Assembly (NCBI RefSeq): GCF_003018255.1
Contig: NZ_CP027440.1
Reading direction: 5' to 3' (one strand)
DNA from: Escherichia coli
Lineage (GTDB): Bacteria > Pseudomonadota > Gammaproteobacteria > Enterobacterales > Enterobacteriaceae
Length of the DNA stretch: 64,000 nt
Shown here: piece after piece, positions 36,602-41,683 of the stretch
Layout of the letters: each line of letters begins with the position of its first letter
Numbering within the stretch: position 1 is the first letter of the stretch
Notes under the pieces: model-generated
What the model was told of the DNA's origin: nothing
Database searches by the model: none
The model's input: the letters and a program-made list of their open reading frames with translations, nothing else
Program-made: the position numbers and the translations under genes

Positions 36602-36980
36602 TTTCTTTTTTTGTTCAAATAGTTACTCCGAAGAAAAAATAGAGATAATAAACATTAATAAACCAATATATATAGGTACCAATCAATCAGATAAGGTGCT
36701 TATTACTGCGTGTAATCATTGGGTGCTTAATTCTAGAGATATTATAGACATATTCAATCTAAGTATAAAGCATGATGATTATGGCGAAATAAACAGAATG
36801 TATTATTGGTTACCTTGTGAAATTAGAGGGAGACTAATGTATGACGGAATAGAATGGAGTTTTGTTATCAATGCTGCTGCAACAGCAATGTGGATGAGCA
36901 ATGATAAAGAGATTTACTGGGGATGCAATAAAAAAGCATGCGATAATTTCTTTTTATTACCATATGATGGGATGAGGTAA
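36543..36980 (+). CDS. Candidate cognate immunity protein (periplasmic, signal peptide)
   Basis: Overlaps the 3' end of the amidase gene. N-terminus MIKLVIKQKVKALISIVLINFFFCSNSYS looks like a Sec signal peptide; Cys-rich; AT-rich. Start among ATG 36531/36537/36543 is uncertain. Confidence 0.5.
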   Translation: MIKLVIKQKVKALISIVLINFFFCSNSYSEEKIEIININKPIYIGTNQSDKVLITACNHWVLNSRDIIDIFNLSIKHDDYGEINRMYYWLPCEIRGRLMYDGIEWSFVINAAATAMWMSNDKEIYWGCNKKACDNFFLLPYDGMR

Positions 36981-37085
36981 ATCACAGTTAATAAAGCAAA
37001 AACATTATGGACAAGTGAATTAATCAGATAGTTCAAGCACCTTGAGATTCATTGTATTCATATTTCAGAATAACGGATTATTACA

Positions 37086-38300
37086 ATGCCCATCCGACTT
37101 AATACCATTCCCGACGCAGAACCCTATCCCGCACCGCCAGCCCGCATTAAATGGCTGTCAGCCTTATTACTGATGCTGTCTGTTGGTGTGGCAATAACCT
37201 CATTATTCGCCAGCGATGAACTGGCAAAAAACGGCCCATATTTCTGGGGGCTGGCCTGCGGCGTGCCTGCTTTTATCTGGTCACTGGTCGGTTCGGTGCG
37301 CTGGCTGGTATTTGTCACTCAACATATTCGTGCCGATGCCTGGAATCAACGTCGCGAAGAAGTCATTTTGCAGGAAACACGGCGGGGACGACGGGCGTTG
37401 CAGATACTCAGTTTTTCCGTACAAACCGCGCTGAATGGTGATTCCGTCGCAGAAACTACAACAGCATTTCTGGCGCGTCATCAGGTGTTGAATACTTACG
37501 CTGATTTGCGCGGAGAAGATACCGTGCGTCGCAGTGTCATTCCCGTATTAACCAATAAACCGGTTACCGGGCGTTTATCCGAAATTATTTCCCGCCTTTT
37601 TATTGATATCAGACCGCAATTGTTTCTGCTGCCCCCTGATTTTCATATCAACGTACTACTGGAAATTGATGCGCCGCTTTCAGGGGCCTCCGTGAGAACT
37701 ATCTGGCAGGACGAATGGCAAAAAGCCGGACTCCCCGAAGCCCGTCTGTTTTCTGCCCCGGAGCCGGGGCTGGCCGCCGTGGACGACTGGCTGGACAACT
37801 TTATTCAGGAAAAGGCCGTACTGCTGGTGATTTCCGTGCGTCTGGAACCGAAGAACCCGGAACGGACGGCAGAATCCGCCACCGCGCTGTTGCTGGCAAA
37901 CCGACTGACGCAAACCGCGCTGACGCCGCTGGCCCTGCTGCATCGTCCTGAACGTATCACAGATACGGAGATGATGGCGTCAGGCATTGCACAGGCGCTG
38001 GACTGGATGCCGGTGCAGCCAGATGCCATATCCGGCATGTGGACAGTCGAACTGAACAGGGAACAGCGCGCCTCGCTGCTGTCATCTAACCAGCCGTTTA
38101 CTCAGGAAGCCCTGATGTACGAGCTGGATGCCTTTCTGGGGTGCTCCGGACCGGCAGCGCCGTGGCTGTCCGTCGCTGCGGCAACGCTGGCGGCAATACA
38201 ATCACAACACCCCCAACTGACGCTCAGCGGCGTTCAGAACGGGCATTATTCATGGGCGACCATGGTGTCGCCATTCGTTTCCCCTCAGGAGGCATCATAG
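37086..38300 (+). CDS. Uncharacterised T6SS-cluster inner-membrane protein (two N-terminal TM helices plus cytoplasmic domain)
   Basis: 404 aa, GC-rich like the core genes. TM segments WLSALLLMLSVGVAITSLF and FWGLACGVPAFIWSLVGSVRWLVFV. Stop TAG overlaps the tssM GTG start. Confidence 0.6.
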   Translation: MPIRLNTIPDAEPYPAPPARIKWLSALLLMLSVGVAITSLFASDELAKNGPYFWGLACGVPAFIWSLVGSVRWLVFVTQHIRADAWNQRREEVILQETRRGRRALQILSFSVQTALNGDSVAETTTAFLARHQVLNTYADLRGEDTVRRSVIPVLTNKPVTGRLSEIISRLFIDIRPQLFLLPPDFHINVLLEIDAPLSGASVRTIWQDEWQKAGLPEARLFSAPEPGLAAVDDWLDNFIQEKAVLLVISVRLEPKNPERTAESATALLLANRLTQTALTPLALLHRPERITDTEMMASGIAQALDWMPVQPDAISGMWTVELNREQRASLLSSNQPFTQEALMYELDAFLGCSGPAAPWLSVAAATLAAIQSQHPQLTLSGVQNGHYSWATMVSPFVSPQEAS

Positions 38301-41300
38301 TGGTTCCGGGATTAAACCGTCTCCGGCCCCGTTCGGTTTCAGGGCCTGCCATCGTCATGACCGTGGCCGTTGTGGTTGCGCTTTGCACGTTTATTCACCG
38401 TAAACCGGCATTGCTGGGCGTTGAACCGGGTAGTTCACAGCAAATGTACTGGATGGCTGGCGTGATTGCCGCAGGTGTGGTCTTTCTGATTATCATGGGG
38501 GTTTATCATCTGCTGAACCGCCACGCTGCCGTACAGAGCTTTGAACTCCACAGACAGCTTGCCGCCGGAGATGACTATCGGGCGGTGACGACAAAGAAAG
38601 CCGACAGCCGTCATCCGGCAATGGTGGAACTCGCCGCCTTCCTGCGCGACCGCTACGGCCCATTCTGGCGGCGTAAAATCCGCCTGCTGCTGGTGACCGG
38701 CGAGCCTGAACAGGCAGAGGCCATCGCGCCGGGGCTGACCGGGCAACACTGGCTGGAGGGCGACCACACGGTGCTGATATATGGCGGCAGGCCATCTACA
38801 GAGCCTGATGTCGCGCTACTGACCGCCTTAAAAAAACTGCGCCGCAGCCGTCCGCTGGACGGCATCATCTGGCCGCTGACAGAAGAACAGAGCCGCCAGA
38901 CGGCGCAACTCGACAAAGGCTGGCGCGAACTGATAAACGGCGGTAAGCGACTCGGTTTTCAGGCTCCACTCTATTTGTGGCAGGTCTGTGACAACGGTGA
39001 TTATCAGACCGGACGCCCCCTGCAAAGCGTCGGCTGCCTGCTGTCGGAACGCTGTACCCCGGAACAACTGGCTGCAATGCTGGAAGCACAAACCCTGCCG
39101 CTGACGGAACAGGGCATGTCGCAGCTGCTTACCGATAACCGCCATGATTTCCTGCTGCGTCTGGCCCATACCCTTGCAGAGCGGGGTATCGCTCACTGGC
39201 AAAGTATCCTGAAACCGCTGCTGGCAGGCGGCGCATTTTCCTCCCTGCGCCTGCGTGGCCTGATGTTCAGCCCGCCGCTTACCGCCGTACCGGAAGCCGC
39301 ACCTCATGCGTGGCTGCCGTCACCGGTCTGGGCGGGCGTGACCGGCGATAACGCGCGGGGTCGCACGGTGGGCTTTCCGTGGCTGCGTATCACGCTGATG
39401 TCTGCTGTCTGCGTACTGGCGATATGGGGGGCCGGAATGACGACCTCGTTCTTCGCCAACCGCGCACTTGTTCAGGAAACCAGCATCCAGACGGCGCGTG
39501 CACTCGATATCCGTCTGCCGCTGTCTGAACAACTGGTGGCGCTGCATACCCTGCAGGGTGAACTGGAGCGCCTGCAGTACCGTATCCGGGAGGGTGCGCC
39601 GTGGTATCAGCGTTTTGGCCTTGAACGTAACCAGCAACTGCTCGCCGCCGCCTTTCCCGGCTATGCGCAGGCGGCAAACCGGCTGGTGCGCGACGTGGCC
39701 GTTGACCATCTGCAACAGCAACTGAATGCCTTTGTCGCGCTGCCGCCCAATAGTCCGCAGCGTACCGCCACCGGCGAACAGCGCTATAAGCAGCTTAAGG
39801 CATTGCTGATGACTTCCCGCCCGGAAAAGGCCGACGCTGCCTTTTTCAGTACCACGCTGATGGCAGATGACCTGCGCTATGCAGGTGTACCGGAAGGTGT
39901 GCGTCAGAGCGTGTTGCCGTCACTGCTGACCTTCTGGATGGCGAATCTGCCGGAACACCCACAGTGGAAAACTTCGCCGCCACCGGAACTGACCGGCGCA
40001 GTGCGCAAAATCCTGCTGCGCCAGATTGGTGTGCGCAATGCCGAAAACACTCTCTACCAGAACGTACTGCAACAGGTGTCCCGCAACTACGCCGATATGA
40101 CGCTGGCGGACATGACCGGGGATACGCTCACCGAATCTCTTTTCAGTACGGAGCAGACGGTGCCGGGGATGTTTACCCGTCAGGCGTGGGAAGGACAGGT
40201 CAGGGAAGCCATCGAGCAGGTGGTGACGGCGCGGCGCGAGGAAATCGACTGGGTACTCAGCGACCGCCAGCAGGATACCTCTGCGGATATCTCGCCGGAT
40301 ATGCTGCGTAACCGTCTCACTTCACGCTACTTTACCGACTTTGCCGGAAGCTGGCTGGCGTTTCTCAACAGCATTCGCTGGAAAAAGGAAGACTCGCTCT
40401 CCGGCATTCTCGACCAGTTGACGCTGATGGCCGATGCCCGCCAGTCACCGCTGATTGCGCTGACAGACACCCTCGCGTGGCAGGCGGCGGCTGGCAGGGA
40501 AAACCGTGGCCTGTCAGACTCGCTGGCGAAATCGGCACAGGAACTGTTTAACGGCAAGGAGAAAACGCCGCAGCAATCCCGTGAAGGCGACGTGCCTGTC
40601 GGGCCGCTGGATAAAACCTTCGCGCCGCTGCTGCGGTTGCTTGGCGATAAGGCAGGAGGCGGCGACAGCCAGCTGAGCCTGCAGACCTACCTCACCCGAG
40701 TCACCCGCGTGCGCCTCAAACTGCAACAGGTGACCAACGCCCCTGACCCGCAGGAGATGACCCAGCAACTGGCGCAGACGGTCTTACAAGGCAAAACCGT
40801 TGACCTTACCGACACCCGCGACTATGGCAGCCTGATAGCCGCCAGTCTGGGTGAAGAGTGGAGTGGCTTCGGTCAGGCGCTGTTCGTCCGCCCGGTGGAG
40901 CAGTCATGGCGGCAGGTGCTGACGCCTGCGGCAGACAGCCTGAACCGCCAGTGGCAGCGGGCGATTGTCAGCCACTGGGATCAGGACTTCGCTGGTCGCT
41001 ACCCGTTCAAAGCCTCACAAAACGATGCCTCCCTCCCCCTGCTGGCGCAGTACCTGCGCGATGACGGGCGCATCAACCAGTTTATCGCCGCCAATCTTTC
41101 CGGCGTACTGAAACGTGAAGGCCGCTACTGGGTGGCTGACGCCATGAACACGCAGGGGCTGACAGTCAATCCGGACTTTATTCGCGCCCTGAACCGCCTG
41201 CGCGATGTGGCCGATACCGCCTTTGCCAGCGGCGATGCAGGGATACATTTTGAACTGCGGGCAAAACCGGCGCGCGACGTGATGAAGACGCATCTGGTGA

Positions 41301-41683
41301 TTGACGGGCAGGAGCTGGAATATTTCAACCAGAAGGAACGCTGGCAGCGTTTTAACTGGCCGGATGAACAGTGGCAACCCGGCGCATCGCTGAGCTGGAC
41401 CAGTACGCAGGCGATGGAACGCATACTGGCGGATTATCGGGGAAGCTGGAGCCTTATTCGCCTGCTGGAACAGGCGCAGGTGACACCGGTGGACAGCAGT
41501 ACCTTTAAAGTGGTGTGGAAAGCGCAGGACGGCCTGCCGCTGAATTACCTGCTGCGGGTTGAACAGGGTAAAGGGCCGCTGGCGCTGCTGGAACTGAAAA
41601 ACTTCCGCCTGCCGGGACAGGTGTTCCTGACCGGCAGGAGTATGAAGGATGCGGAAGAATACGGGGAAGACGCCGATGAGTGA
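38300..41683 (+). CDS. tssM: T6SS membrane-complex protein TssM (IcmF-like)
   Basis: Start placed at GTG 38300 with AGGAGG at 38287-38292, giving 1127 aa with the canonical TM1-TM2-cytoplasmic-TM3-periplasmic layout. The track's ATG 38141 would overlap the upstream gene by 160 nt. Confidence 0.85.
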   Translation: MVPGLNRLRPRSVSGPAIVMTVAVVVALCTFIHRKPALLGVEPGSSQQMYWMAGVIAAGVVFLIIMGVYHLLNRHAAVQSFELHRQLAAGDDYRAVTTKKADSRHPAMVELAAFLRDRYGPFWRRKIRLLLVTGEPEQAEAIAPGLTGQHWLEGDHTVLIYGGRPSTEPDVALLTALKKLRRSRPLDGIIWPLTEEQSRQTAQLDKGWRELINGGKRLGFQAPLYLWQVCDNGDYQTGRPLQSVGCLLSERCTPEQLAAMLEAQTLPLTEQGMSQLLTDNRHDFLLRLAHTLAERGIAHWQSILKPLLAGGAFSSLRLRGLMFSPPLTAVPEAAPHAWLPSPVWAGVTGDNARGRTVGFPWLRITLMSAVCVLAIWGAGMTTSFFANRALVQETSIQTARALDIRLPLSEQLVALHTLQGELERLQYRIREGAPWYQRFGLERNQQLLAAAFPGYAQAANRLVRDVAVDHLQQQLNAFVALPPNSPQRTATGEQRYKQLKALLMTSRPEKADAAFFSTTLMADDLRYAGVPEGVRQSVLPSLLTFWMANLPEHPQWKTSPPPELTGAVRKILLRQIGVRNAENTLYQNVLQQVSRNYADMTLADMTGDTLTESLFSTEQTVPGMFTRQAWEGQVREAIEQVVTARREEIDWVLSDRQQDTSADISPDMLRNRLTSRYFTDFAGSWLAFLNSIRWKKEDSLSGILDQLTLMADARQSPLIALTDTLAWQAAAGRENRGLSDSLAKSAQELFNGKEKTPQQSREGDVPVGPLDKTFAPLLRLLGDKAGGGDSQLSLQTYLTRVTRVRLKLQQVTNAPDPQEMTQQLAQTVLQGKTVDLTDTRDYGSLIAASLGEEWSGFGQALFVRPVEQSWRQVLTPAADSLNRQWQRAIVSHWDQDFAGRYPFKASQNDASLPLLAQYLRDDGRINQFIAANLSGVLKREGRYWVADAMNTQGLTVNPDFIRALNRLRDVADTAFASGDAGIHFELRAKPARDVMKTHLVIDGQELEYFNQKERWQRFNWPDEQWQPGASLSWTSTQAMERILADYRGSWSLIRLLEQAQVTPVDSSTFKVVWKAQDGLPLNYLLRVEQGKGPLALLELKNFRLPGQVFLTGRSMKDAEEYGEDADE

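Follow-up and report, generated by a model that had tools for sequence, protein, structure and literature searches.

What is the protein encoded immediately upstream of tssM in a type VI secretion system (T6SS) cluster of Escherichia coli, and where does tssM itself begin? Both questions arise in a 64,000-nucleotide (nt) stretch of E. coli DNA (assembly GCF_003018255.1, contig NZ_CP027440.1; this whole stretch is called the window below), in which an open reading frame (ORF) of 404 amino acids (aa) runs up to tssM. The comparisons described here indicate that the ORF is a real gene and belongs to a large, widely conserved and uncharacterized family of T6SS accessory proteins. Its product is predicted to carry a membrane hairpin and a catalytically degenerate ketosynthase-like domain related to the adaptor Tla3. 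On balance we lean towards a role as a non-catalytic inner-membrane tether that would link the PAAR/VgrG/cargo spike to TssJLM.

A conserved gene family upstream of tssM

The gene has the following position.

37086..38300, + strand: gene of the 404-aa T6SS accessory protein (KPHS_23130 family; predicted to be membrane anchored and Tla3-like, with a ketosynthase fold), based on the ORF, its homologues and the RefSeq name

Full-length homologues of the 404-aa protein span E. coli and Salmonella to Pseudomonas, and the ORF is not a chance one. Identity amounts to 94-95% in E. coli and Shigella, including the common E. coli clusters, to 75-77% in Salmonella, to 60-63% in metagenomic Enterobacteriaceae and to 31-38% in Pseudomonas and other Enterobacterales. 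A word-indexed search with the protein gave 71 matches, and a profile search over 1.84 billion representative proteins retrieved 563 clusters at E<=1e-3, of which 178 also passed E<=1e-30; almost all are ~400 aa long and align end to end. Foldseek on the AlphaFold database (AFDB) found relatives in Yersinia pestis, Photorhabdus, Klebsiella, Pantoea, Serratia, Pseudomonas, Burkholderia and Cupriavidus, mostly annotated as "uncharacterized" or "type VI secretion protein."

Conservation statistics were taken from an alignment of 110 representatives. The N-terminal MPxRL motif has its M1 in 95% of them, and the conserved N-terminal features comprise MPxRLxxIP, W23, W54, P61, W65, R72 and RRGRRALQIL right after the second transmembrane (TM) segment. 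The remainder of the protein conserves D233-x-W-L-D237, E263, L-H286-R287-P-E, W319, G352-x-x-G-x-A-A-P-W360 and A366.

The first-pass annotation of this DNA could not assign the protein to a named family, a statement now superseded by a RefSeq name and by the remote homology to Tla3/DUF2875 described below. In the newest RefSeq annotation, identical or near-identical proteins are called "KPHS_23130 family T6SS system protein"; they include WP_001145241.1 (404 aa), in the corresponding slot of E. coli 20595, and the protein of a record (H48) that is 100% identical to the window over 37840-37960. The label is a Klebsiella locus tag and makes no statement of function. Its sole mention in the searched literature is in a virulence-gene list, and we found there no description of the fold, the topology or the Tla3 kinship of the family, which is known by its database name only. 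NCBIfam release 20.0 matched neither the window protein nor the RefSeq-named protein itself, so the name must come from another rule or a later model. Pfam gave no match for the 404-aa protein, even at E<=10, and the PADLOC models gave none for it or its relatives.

A rare 393-aa allele (P0005; E. coli B171, O103:H2) is without residues 265-275, the conserved TALLLANRLTQ strand. The 33 nt absent from it are flanked by repeats.

37881..37889 and 37914..37922, + strand: two 9-bp direct repeats, ACCGCGCTG

The stretch is intact in 988/994 complete genomes. The short allele is rare among these (~6/994) but is recorded on at least 1000 contigs. A second 404-aa ORF, in locus L009 of the survey described below, was considered as a paralogue and proved unrelated (hhalign 0.11%).

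A predicted membrane hairpin and a degenerate ketosynthase-like domain

Five features of the protein, all on the + strand, were delimited.

37155..37211, + strand: TM1, residues 24-42 (Kyte-Doolittle 2.23; helix 20-41 in the AlphaFold2 [AF2] model)
37242..37316, + strand: predicted TM2, residues 53-77, moderately hydrophobic, with W54, P61, W65 and R72 conserved (AF2 helix 50-100)
37395..38273, + strand: predicted cytoplasmic domain of thiolase/ketosynthase fold, residues 104-396, catalytically degenerate
37938..37952, + strand: LHRPE motif (L285-E289), common to Tla3 (LARLHRPV), from the family alignment and the profile comparison
38139..38168, + strand: G352-x-x-G355-x-A-A-P-W360 motif, common to Tla3 (LGDTGAASPF), from the family alignment

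Two N-terminal TM helices followed by a cytoplasmic domain had been proposed at first pass, and we likewise predict a hairpin, with TM1 clear and TM2 just below threshold: residues 53-71 score ~1.59 by hand calculation against a threshold of 1.6. The equivalent segment exceeds 1.6 in the members from UTI89 and Pseudomonas fluorescens, the TM2 helix extends to residue 100 in the AF2 model, and the hairpin is conserved across the family (W23, W54, P61, W65 and R72). Net charges are +1 for the N-tail, -1 for the loop and +3 after TM2. Hydropathy and charge distribution together indicate an N-in/C-in topology, with both ends cytoplasmic.

The AF2 model, built with the family alignment (pLDDT 81, pTM 0.72), consists of helix 20-41, a short loop, the long helix 50-100 and an alpha/beta domain at 104-396 that has a thiolase-like fold. 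In searches of the PDB, a profile of 21 sequences reached 8yz3_A at E 0.015 and the profile of 110 sequences reached it at E 5e-6, the sole PDB match below E 0.9; no ketosynthase appeared in these searches even at E<=10. This entry is Tla3 (PA0259), a cytoplasmic adaptor of the Pseudomonas aeruginosa H2-T6SS that loads the lipase Tle3 onto VgrG2b (PMC6560169; PDB 8yz3). The alignment places query residues 275-387 on Tla3 297-424 and pairs LHRPE with LARLHRPV and LGxxGAAAPW with LGDTGAASPF. Against an alignment of Tla3_C fragments, hhalign gave 93.7% (E 1.9e-7), a comparison of C-terminal parts because that profile holds only fragments gathered from the 128-aa aligned piece of Tla3. Pfam Tla3_C itself matched 2 of the 110 members weakly (best E 0.038). 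Judged by these profile comparisons, the KPHS_23130 family is a remote homologue of Tla3 (DUF2875).

Within the domain, all members have R287 and 92% have H286. The GxxGxAAPW motif we take to resemble the GHxxGAAG of ketosynthases, a resemblance between motifs with no structural alignment behind the residue correspondence. Only 24% of members have His at residue 353, which follows the invariant G352, and no column of the alignment holds more than 17% Cys. Lacking a nucleophilic Cys column and having a degenerate second His position, the family appears to have lost the active site of condensing enzymes.

The gene lies between spike cargo and tssM

In the window, the gene lies inside a T6SS-1-type cluster on the + strand, at ~24.1 to 50.5 kb. 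Over this region the window is E. coli chromosome and is 100% identical to several complete genomes; the locus is present in 996/5,426 complete E. coli genomes. Leaving aside a few small ORFs without names, the T6SS genes follow each other in the order tssB, tssC, tssK, tssL, an OmpA/TagL-like gene, hcp, clpV and vgrG; a 244-aa amidase gene, a small ORF and the 404-aa ORF; and tssM, tssA, a PAAR-domain gene, tssF, tssG, tssJ, tssE and a VasL/TagA-like gene. The earlier description of the gene as GC rich like the core genes holds: its GC content is 49-61%, that of core genes is 55-64% and that of the cargo just upstream (35800-37000) is 30-31%.

To place the gene in other species, we scanned one genome per species with the 21-sequence alignment and classed the neighbors by tblastn with the T6SS proteins of the window and of P. 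fluorescens. Across the 80 loci so obtained, tssM follows the family gene directly in 65 species, as expected from the first-pass proposal of a gene conserved upstream of tssM in related clusters, and a PAAR gene stands between the two in 1 more. The order of the clusters is uniform: vgrG, variable cargo, family gene, tssM, tssA, sometimes PAAR, tssF and tssG. A small PAAR gene lies directly upstream of the family gene in 31/80 loci, typically with a gap of 6 nt, and directly downstream in 4/80, so that the two are adjacent in 35/80; in 27 loci PAAR comes after tssM/tssA. Most loci with sufficient flank have vgrG at most 8 kb upstream of the family gene.

About 14 of the 80 loci are without tssM. 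Among them are auxiliary vgrG islands closed by the family gene (L029, L031, L035, L060, L063 and L078), and orphan copies end VgrG-toxin-immunity(-PAAR) modules that have no tssM. Pseudomonas orphans (L005, L040, L041, L054, L056 and L089) consist of a gene for a ~900-aa toxin, one or more small ORFs and the family gene; within 8 kb of them we detected no VgrG or other T6SS gene, save a small PAAR gene directly upstream in L054. The N-terminal ~640 aa of these toxins are conserved (48-90% identity) and their C termini are variable, and the same toxin family precedes the family gene in many Pseudomonas main clusters. Several genomes hold 2-4 copies of the family gene.

Some further observations were made on these neighborhoods. 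The polymorphic toxins (L005 6714-9422, L006 5840-8320, L040, L041, L054, L056, L063, L078 and L089) contain GLWHGGVHF in the conserved ~640-aa region and often lie outside any T6SS cluster. No Pfam or NCBIfam model matches their conserved part, and the C terminus of the L005 toxin is weakly GH19/chitinase-like. A degraded T6SS cluster from a metagenome (L007 5765-15398) has lost tssM, tssA and most core genes, with tssK and tssF truncated, and retains an intact 408-aa family member beside a PAAR gene. A contig labeled as a Negativicutes metagenome-assembled genome (MAG; L066) carries a Pseudomonas-like toxin, a family member and tssM, and is probably a binning error, not a Firmicute T6SS. In the window itself, the cargo module (35867-36980; GC only 30-31%) encodes the 244-aa protein, annotated by RefSeq as N-acetylmuramoyl-L-alanine amidase, and the small downstream ORF, of 129 aa in RefSeq and 149 aa as the longest ORF; the two are presumably an effector-immunity pair. 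In other strains the same site holds an SLT transglycosylase pair or extra vgrG-Tle1 modules. An Rfam scan of 35800-38600 gave no match.

Three allele classes and a mosaic tssM in E. coli

Highly diverged members fill the corresponding slot in further E. coli clusters. The Sci-1-type cluster of enteroaggregative E. coli (EAEC) reads vgrG, tle1, tli1, PAAR, a 382-aa hypothetical protein and tssM, and the 382-aa protein matches the family profile (hhalign 98.5%, E 2.7e-15). As the literature tags the neighboring PAAR and TssM as EC042_4537 and EC042_4539, we infer that this member is EC042_4538, a tag of which we found no mention in the searched literature. The UTI89-type cluster reads vgrG, lipase, Tli4, PAAR, a 378-aa protein and tssM; the 378-aa protein matches the profile at 99.1% and is ~20% identical to the EAEC member. 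There are thus three allele classes, with a mutual identity of only ~17-21%, which each accompany a cargo type of their own: a peptidoglycan hydrolase, Tle1 with PAAR, or a lipase with Tli4 and PAAR. The classes were counted in 994-996, 186 and 55 genomes, or ~1,200/5,426 complete E. coli genomes in all. Within allele classes, the PAAR-gene-tssM unit is steadier than the upstream effector.

The tssM of UTI89 (L094 6686-10039) is a mosaic relative to that of the window (38300-41683). Over the first ~117 residues, which comprise the TM1-TM2 hairpin and a linker, the two proteins are 19-30% identical, and from a breakpoint at RYGPFWRRK onward they are 87-100% identical. Since the divergence is confined to this N-terminal part, the unit exchanged between strains is cargo, PAAR, family gene and TssM hairpin together. 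Partial tssM matches in UTI89-like genomes, considered as 5' truncations, proved to be mosaics of this kind, whose 5' end diverges. Another group of genomes (H37-H44) matches only from tssM nt 1623 onward.

Mirror-tree comparisons over 54 pairs gave a correlation of r 0.90 between distances in the family and in the TssM hairpin region. Controlling for the remainder of TssM left a partial r of 0.69, and the remainder itself reached a partial r of only 0.32. These correlations fit co-adaptation without proving it, because the segments compared are adjacent DNA. In none of the 54 neighboring TssMs did we find a Walker A motif in the cytoplasmic domain, the single regex match adjoining TM2; the window TssM reads LLLVTGEPEQAEA at the Walker A location. 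This suggests that the family occurs alongside a subclass of TssM whose NTPase is degenerate.

tssM starts at a GTG overlapping the upstream stop codon

The gene downstream matches EAEC TssM (6hs7/6ixh) with E around 1e-282, and four candidates for its start were compared.

38300..41683, + strand: tssM coding sequence restarted at GTG 38300, 1127 aa, with a one-base overlap with the upstream TAG
38287..38292, + strand: Shine-Dalgarno (SD) sequence AGGAGG for tssM, within the codons for the upstream C-terminal ...PQEAS
38141..38143, + strand: rejected start GTG, giving a 1180-aa ORF that overlaps the upstream gene by 160 nt
38252..38254, + strand: rejected start ATG (-48), in frame, arising from the conserved W390 codon (TC-A TG-G)
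38357..38359, + strand: rejected start ATG, the RefSeq choice made by the Prokaryotic Genome Annotation Pipeline (PGAP), 1108 aa

On re-reading the sequence we found the coordinates previously given for the 404-aa ORF, the SD sequence and the tssM start candidates all correct. The first-pass annotation had moved the start to GTG 38300, and this reassignment is borne out by the conservation of codon and SD sequence and by a substitution pattern that switches frame exactly there. The stop of the 404-aa ORF is TAG 38298-38300; the GTG (38300-38302), in frame, shares its G with that TAG and lies 7 nt downstream of AGGAGG. E. coli 20595, a Citrobacter MAG, Entomohabitans, Salmonella and two metagenomic relatives all retain GTG 38300 and CAGGAGG. 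Taking all 53 full-length pairs, the start of tssM falls within -12 to +15 of the upstream stop in 49. Distant Enterobacterales have GTG or ATG at -3 (GTGA overlap) with a 5-nt SD sequence at a spacing of 8 (22 loci), Pseudomonas has an equivalent ATG at +10 (14 loci), and UTI89 tssM starts 10 nt downstream of the family gene. The start ATG of EAEC TssM (PDB 6hs7/6ixh, 1129 aa) overlaps the upstream stop by 8 nt, and residue 20 of that protein aligns with residue 24 of the protein begun at GTG 38300. Most often, this tssM subtype has its conserved start at a GTG that overlaps the stop codon of the gene before it. Counted from GTG 38300, a Kyte-Doolittle scan finds TM segments at 14-32, 54-72 and ~357-382, the canonical three-segment architecture that the first reading had ascribed to this protein. 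The TIGR03348 match begins only at residue 417 of the 1180-aa ORF and scores 259 bits, below the cutoff of 388. GTG 38300 is thus, by comparative evidence, the well-supported choice and the best supported of the four candidates, and its one-base overlap with the upstream TAG behind AGGAGG suggests that the two genes are translationally coupled.

We consider it quite unlikely that tssM starts at one of the other codons. ATG 38357, a rival absent from the first-pass annotation, was chosen by PGAP, and ATG is the commoner start codon. The codon is not conserved (Salmonella and L009 have ATC, and L010 lacks it), and a start there would cut TM1 down to 13 residues. The substitutions in 38300-38356 fall 9/8/19 on tssM codon positions 1/2/3, a third-position excess that argues for translation of the segment in the tssM frame, and the peptide of these 57 nt, VVPGLNRLRPRSVSGPAIV, is identical at 11-17 of 19 positions across the three relatives compared. 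As for ATG 38252, a start-like codon at -48/-51 recurs in relatives, and gene callers chose it in Salmonella. It is forced by the W390 codon, the equivalent -48 ATG has no SD sequence in the two closest relatives (motif scan), and the substitutions from -48 to -1 fall 17/8/6 on tssM-frame positions 1/2/3, as expected for the frame of the upstream gene. GTG 38141 yields the longest ORF. Each of the six relatives examined has GCG at this position, and stops at -54 and -66 interrupt the frame in L009 and L010; GTG 38141 is an artefact of a window-specific single-nucleotide polymorphism. That EAEC TssM begins at the equivalent overlap also speaks against all three.

Two side observations concern this region. 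A stem-loop, GGCGAC-CATGGT-GTCGCC at 38255-38272, is embedded in the 3' end of the family gene and precedes the tssM SD sequence by 15 nt, and an A-to-G change in Salmonella and L009 preserves one pair as G-U; it could modulate coupled initiation, or merely reflect the conserved peptide WATMVSP. Start calls for tssM are inconsistent: the RefSeq ATG lies inside TM1, and other callers chose -48 or a downstream ATG (L002 11167, L004 6952, L011 1410). Many database TssM N termini of this subtype are probably wrong, and such errors affect construct design and topology models.

Proposed role and alternatives

In the role towards which we lean, the 404-aa protein, without catalysis of its own, would sit in the inner membrane next to the TM1-TM2 hairpin of TssM. 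Its Tla3-like dead-ketosynthase domain would retain the PAAR/VgrG spike or cargo at the cytoplasmic face of TssJLM, and the protein would aid docking of the loaded baseplate and then remain after firing. Speaking for this role are the ketosynthase-like fold without its active site, the homology to Tla3, the predicted hairpin, the close junction with tssM, the neighboring PAAR genes, the orphan copies in toxin modules and the swapping of cassettes that include the TssM hairpin. A bolder version, which we regard as rather unlikely, makes it a near-core component: a membrane-tethered receptor packed on the TssM TM1-TM2 hairpin, whose dead-ketosynthase domain would recognize the PAAR-capped, cargo-loaded VgrG and license baseplate docking, serving as a checkpoint for cargo. 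In this version, the allele of the protein would be swapped as one compatibility cassette together with the PAAR allele and the TssM hairpin.

Several observations weigh against a spike-to-membrane tether. The window-type allele occurs with different effectors, an amidase here versus an SLT transglycosylase in strain 20595, and the GC content of the gene matches that of core genes; varied effectors and core-like GC argue against an effector-specific adaptor. The membrane anchor, which has no precedent among adaptors, counts against a strictly Tla3-like, effector-specific role. At the sequence level the homology to Tla3 spans only the last ~110 residues, the Pfam DUF2875 and Tla3_C models are unmatched at threshold, and the fold match to true ketosynthases equals that to Tla3 in strength. 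The mosaic and mirror-tree signals could reflect linkage of adjacent DNA, not protein contact. The EAEC membrane complex containing TssM (6hs7) was reportedly made from tssJLM alone. The EAEC VgrG-Tle1-PAAR complex was solved from purified components, with a protein of the 404-aa type unmentioned (PMC10715212). In the searched literature we found no experimental data on any family member. As VgrG-Tle1-PAAR and, by report, TssJLM were obtained without a family protein, it would not be an obligatory structural subunit of either.

A dedicated TssM partner with no cargo role, that is, an assembly, stability or regulatory factor that perhaps replaces the lost NTPase of the TssM subclass, is an explanation we take seriously while holding it doubtful. 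The apparent translational coupling, the adjacency to tssM in 65/80 species, the core-like GC, the persistence of one allele with different effectors, the co-variation with the TssM TM hairpin and the 0/54 neighboring TssMs with a cytoplasmic Walker A motif all agree with it. It accounts poorly for intact orphans beside toxin/VgrG modules far from any tssM, for genomes with 2-4 copies and for a nearest characterized relative that is a cargo adaptor; moreover, EAEC TssJLM is said to assemble without it. Cargo is central to the opposite explanation, in which the protein is an effector-specific adaptor or chaperone exactly like Tla3 and the last gene of a cargo module. All nine Pseudomonas orphans (9/9) follow one polymorphic ~900-aa toxin family, each toxin then followed by small ORFs, and each of the three E. 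coli allele classes has its own type of cargo. Against this, the effector changes within an allele class while the gene stays (amidase or SLT in the window type), the EAEC-type PAAR and gene occur with a different upstream region in one genome (H86), the toxin family is missing from several Pseudomonas main clusters, and the GC content differs from that of the cargo. We judge an adaptor of this strict kind unlikely.

Two further explanations concern the domain itself. An active enzyme of the thiolase superfamily, such as an acyltransferase whose substrate at the membrane is a lipid or a T6SS component, could build a site from the conserved polar cluster of D233, D237, E263, H286 and the invariant R287, and one AFDB relative is annotated as 3-oxoacyl-ACP synthase. 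Such an enzyme is highly improbable: no column of the alignment conserves a Cys, Ser or Gln nucleophile (maximum Cys, 17%), the position of the second catalytic His is degenerate, the closest relative in sequence, Tla3, is a binding adaptor (PMC6560169), and we saw no genes handling acyl carriers or coenzyme A in the neighborhoods examined. A kinship with the TssM N terminus had been hinted at in the first-pass annotation from the common outline, a two-helix hairpin followed by a cytoplasmic domain, and would make the protein a paralogue or split-off copy of that region. We give this origin next to no credence, since hhalign returned a probability of 0.08% against TssM residues 1-420, the fold is thiolase-like, and the best 150 profile matches are ~400-aa members and fragments, none of them of TssM length.

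Implications

Structural work on the membrane complexes and the spike loading of T6SSs has EAEC Sci-1 as its model. This cluster holds a diverged member of the family, EC042_4538, and the family reaches Klebsiella, Yersinia, Salmonella, Pseudomonas and Burkholderia. If the protein does link spike or cargo to the membrane complex, this would bear on how the loaded baseplate is recruited to TssJLM and on why cargo cassettes swap together with the 5' end of tssM. The result pairs a testable gap in a heavily studied system with a systematic misannotation of tssM starts.

Comparison with known systems

The N-terminal region of TssM (IcmF) shares with the 404-aa protein the layout of a two-helix membrane hairpin and a cytoplasmic domain; the two differ in having no sequence or profile similarity, in a comparison made at the sequence level, and in the thiolase-like domain of the family. 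Beta-ketoacyl synthases and chain-length factors have the thiolase fold in common with the family, which differs from them in having no nucleophilic Cys and a degenerate second His, in an identity of 8-17%, in its predicted membrane anchor and in the lack of a fatty-acid or polyketide gene context.

The closest counterparts by position are EC042_4538 and the 378-aa protein of UTI89, which occupy the same slot (PAAR-gene-tssM), have the same hairpin-plus-domain layout and match the family profile. Their identity to the window protein and to one another is only ~17-21%, and they have a small PAAR gene directly upstream, unlike the window; several family motifs are degraded in them, as in EC042_4538, which has LLRPM instead of LHRPE.

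Thiolase-like proteins are known from other spike modules. PA0098 (IPR040771), from vgrG1b-type modules, is found with DUF2169 and PIPY effectors (PMC11883445, PMC7970981). By description, proteins of this type resemble the present family as thiolase-fold proteins of unknown role in a T6SS spike-loading module, and differ from it in lying between DUF2169 and a PAAR-like effector, not beside tssM, and in having no reported membrane anchor. Together with Tla3 (PMC6560169), this example indicates that the thiolase fold recurs in T6SS spike-loading modules.

Tla3 is likened to the family by profile homology in the C-terminal half, including the LHRP and GxxGAAxP motifs, by a location beside vgrG, effector, immunity and PAAR genes, and by the want of a conserved catalytic Cys in the family, which we count as a likeness. 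Tla3 has tandem DUF2875/Tla3_C domains, is soluble and is 500 aa long, whereas the family has a predicted N-terminal TM hairpin, measures ~400 aa and falls below the thresholds of Pfam DUF2875 and Tla3_C. Family genes are fixed directly upstream of tssM, with apparent translational coupling, and are not tied to Tle3-type lipases; they are widespread in gammaproteobacteria, whereas DUF2875 was reported to be restricted to alpha- and betaproteobacteria (PMC6560169). The 404-aa protein is best described as a new, membrane-anchored and tssM-coupled branch of the thiolase-like T6SS accessory proteins.

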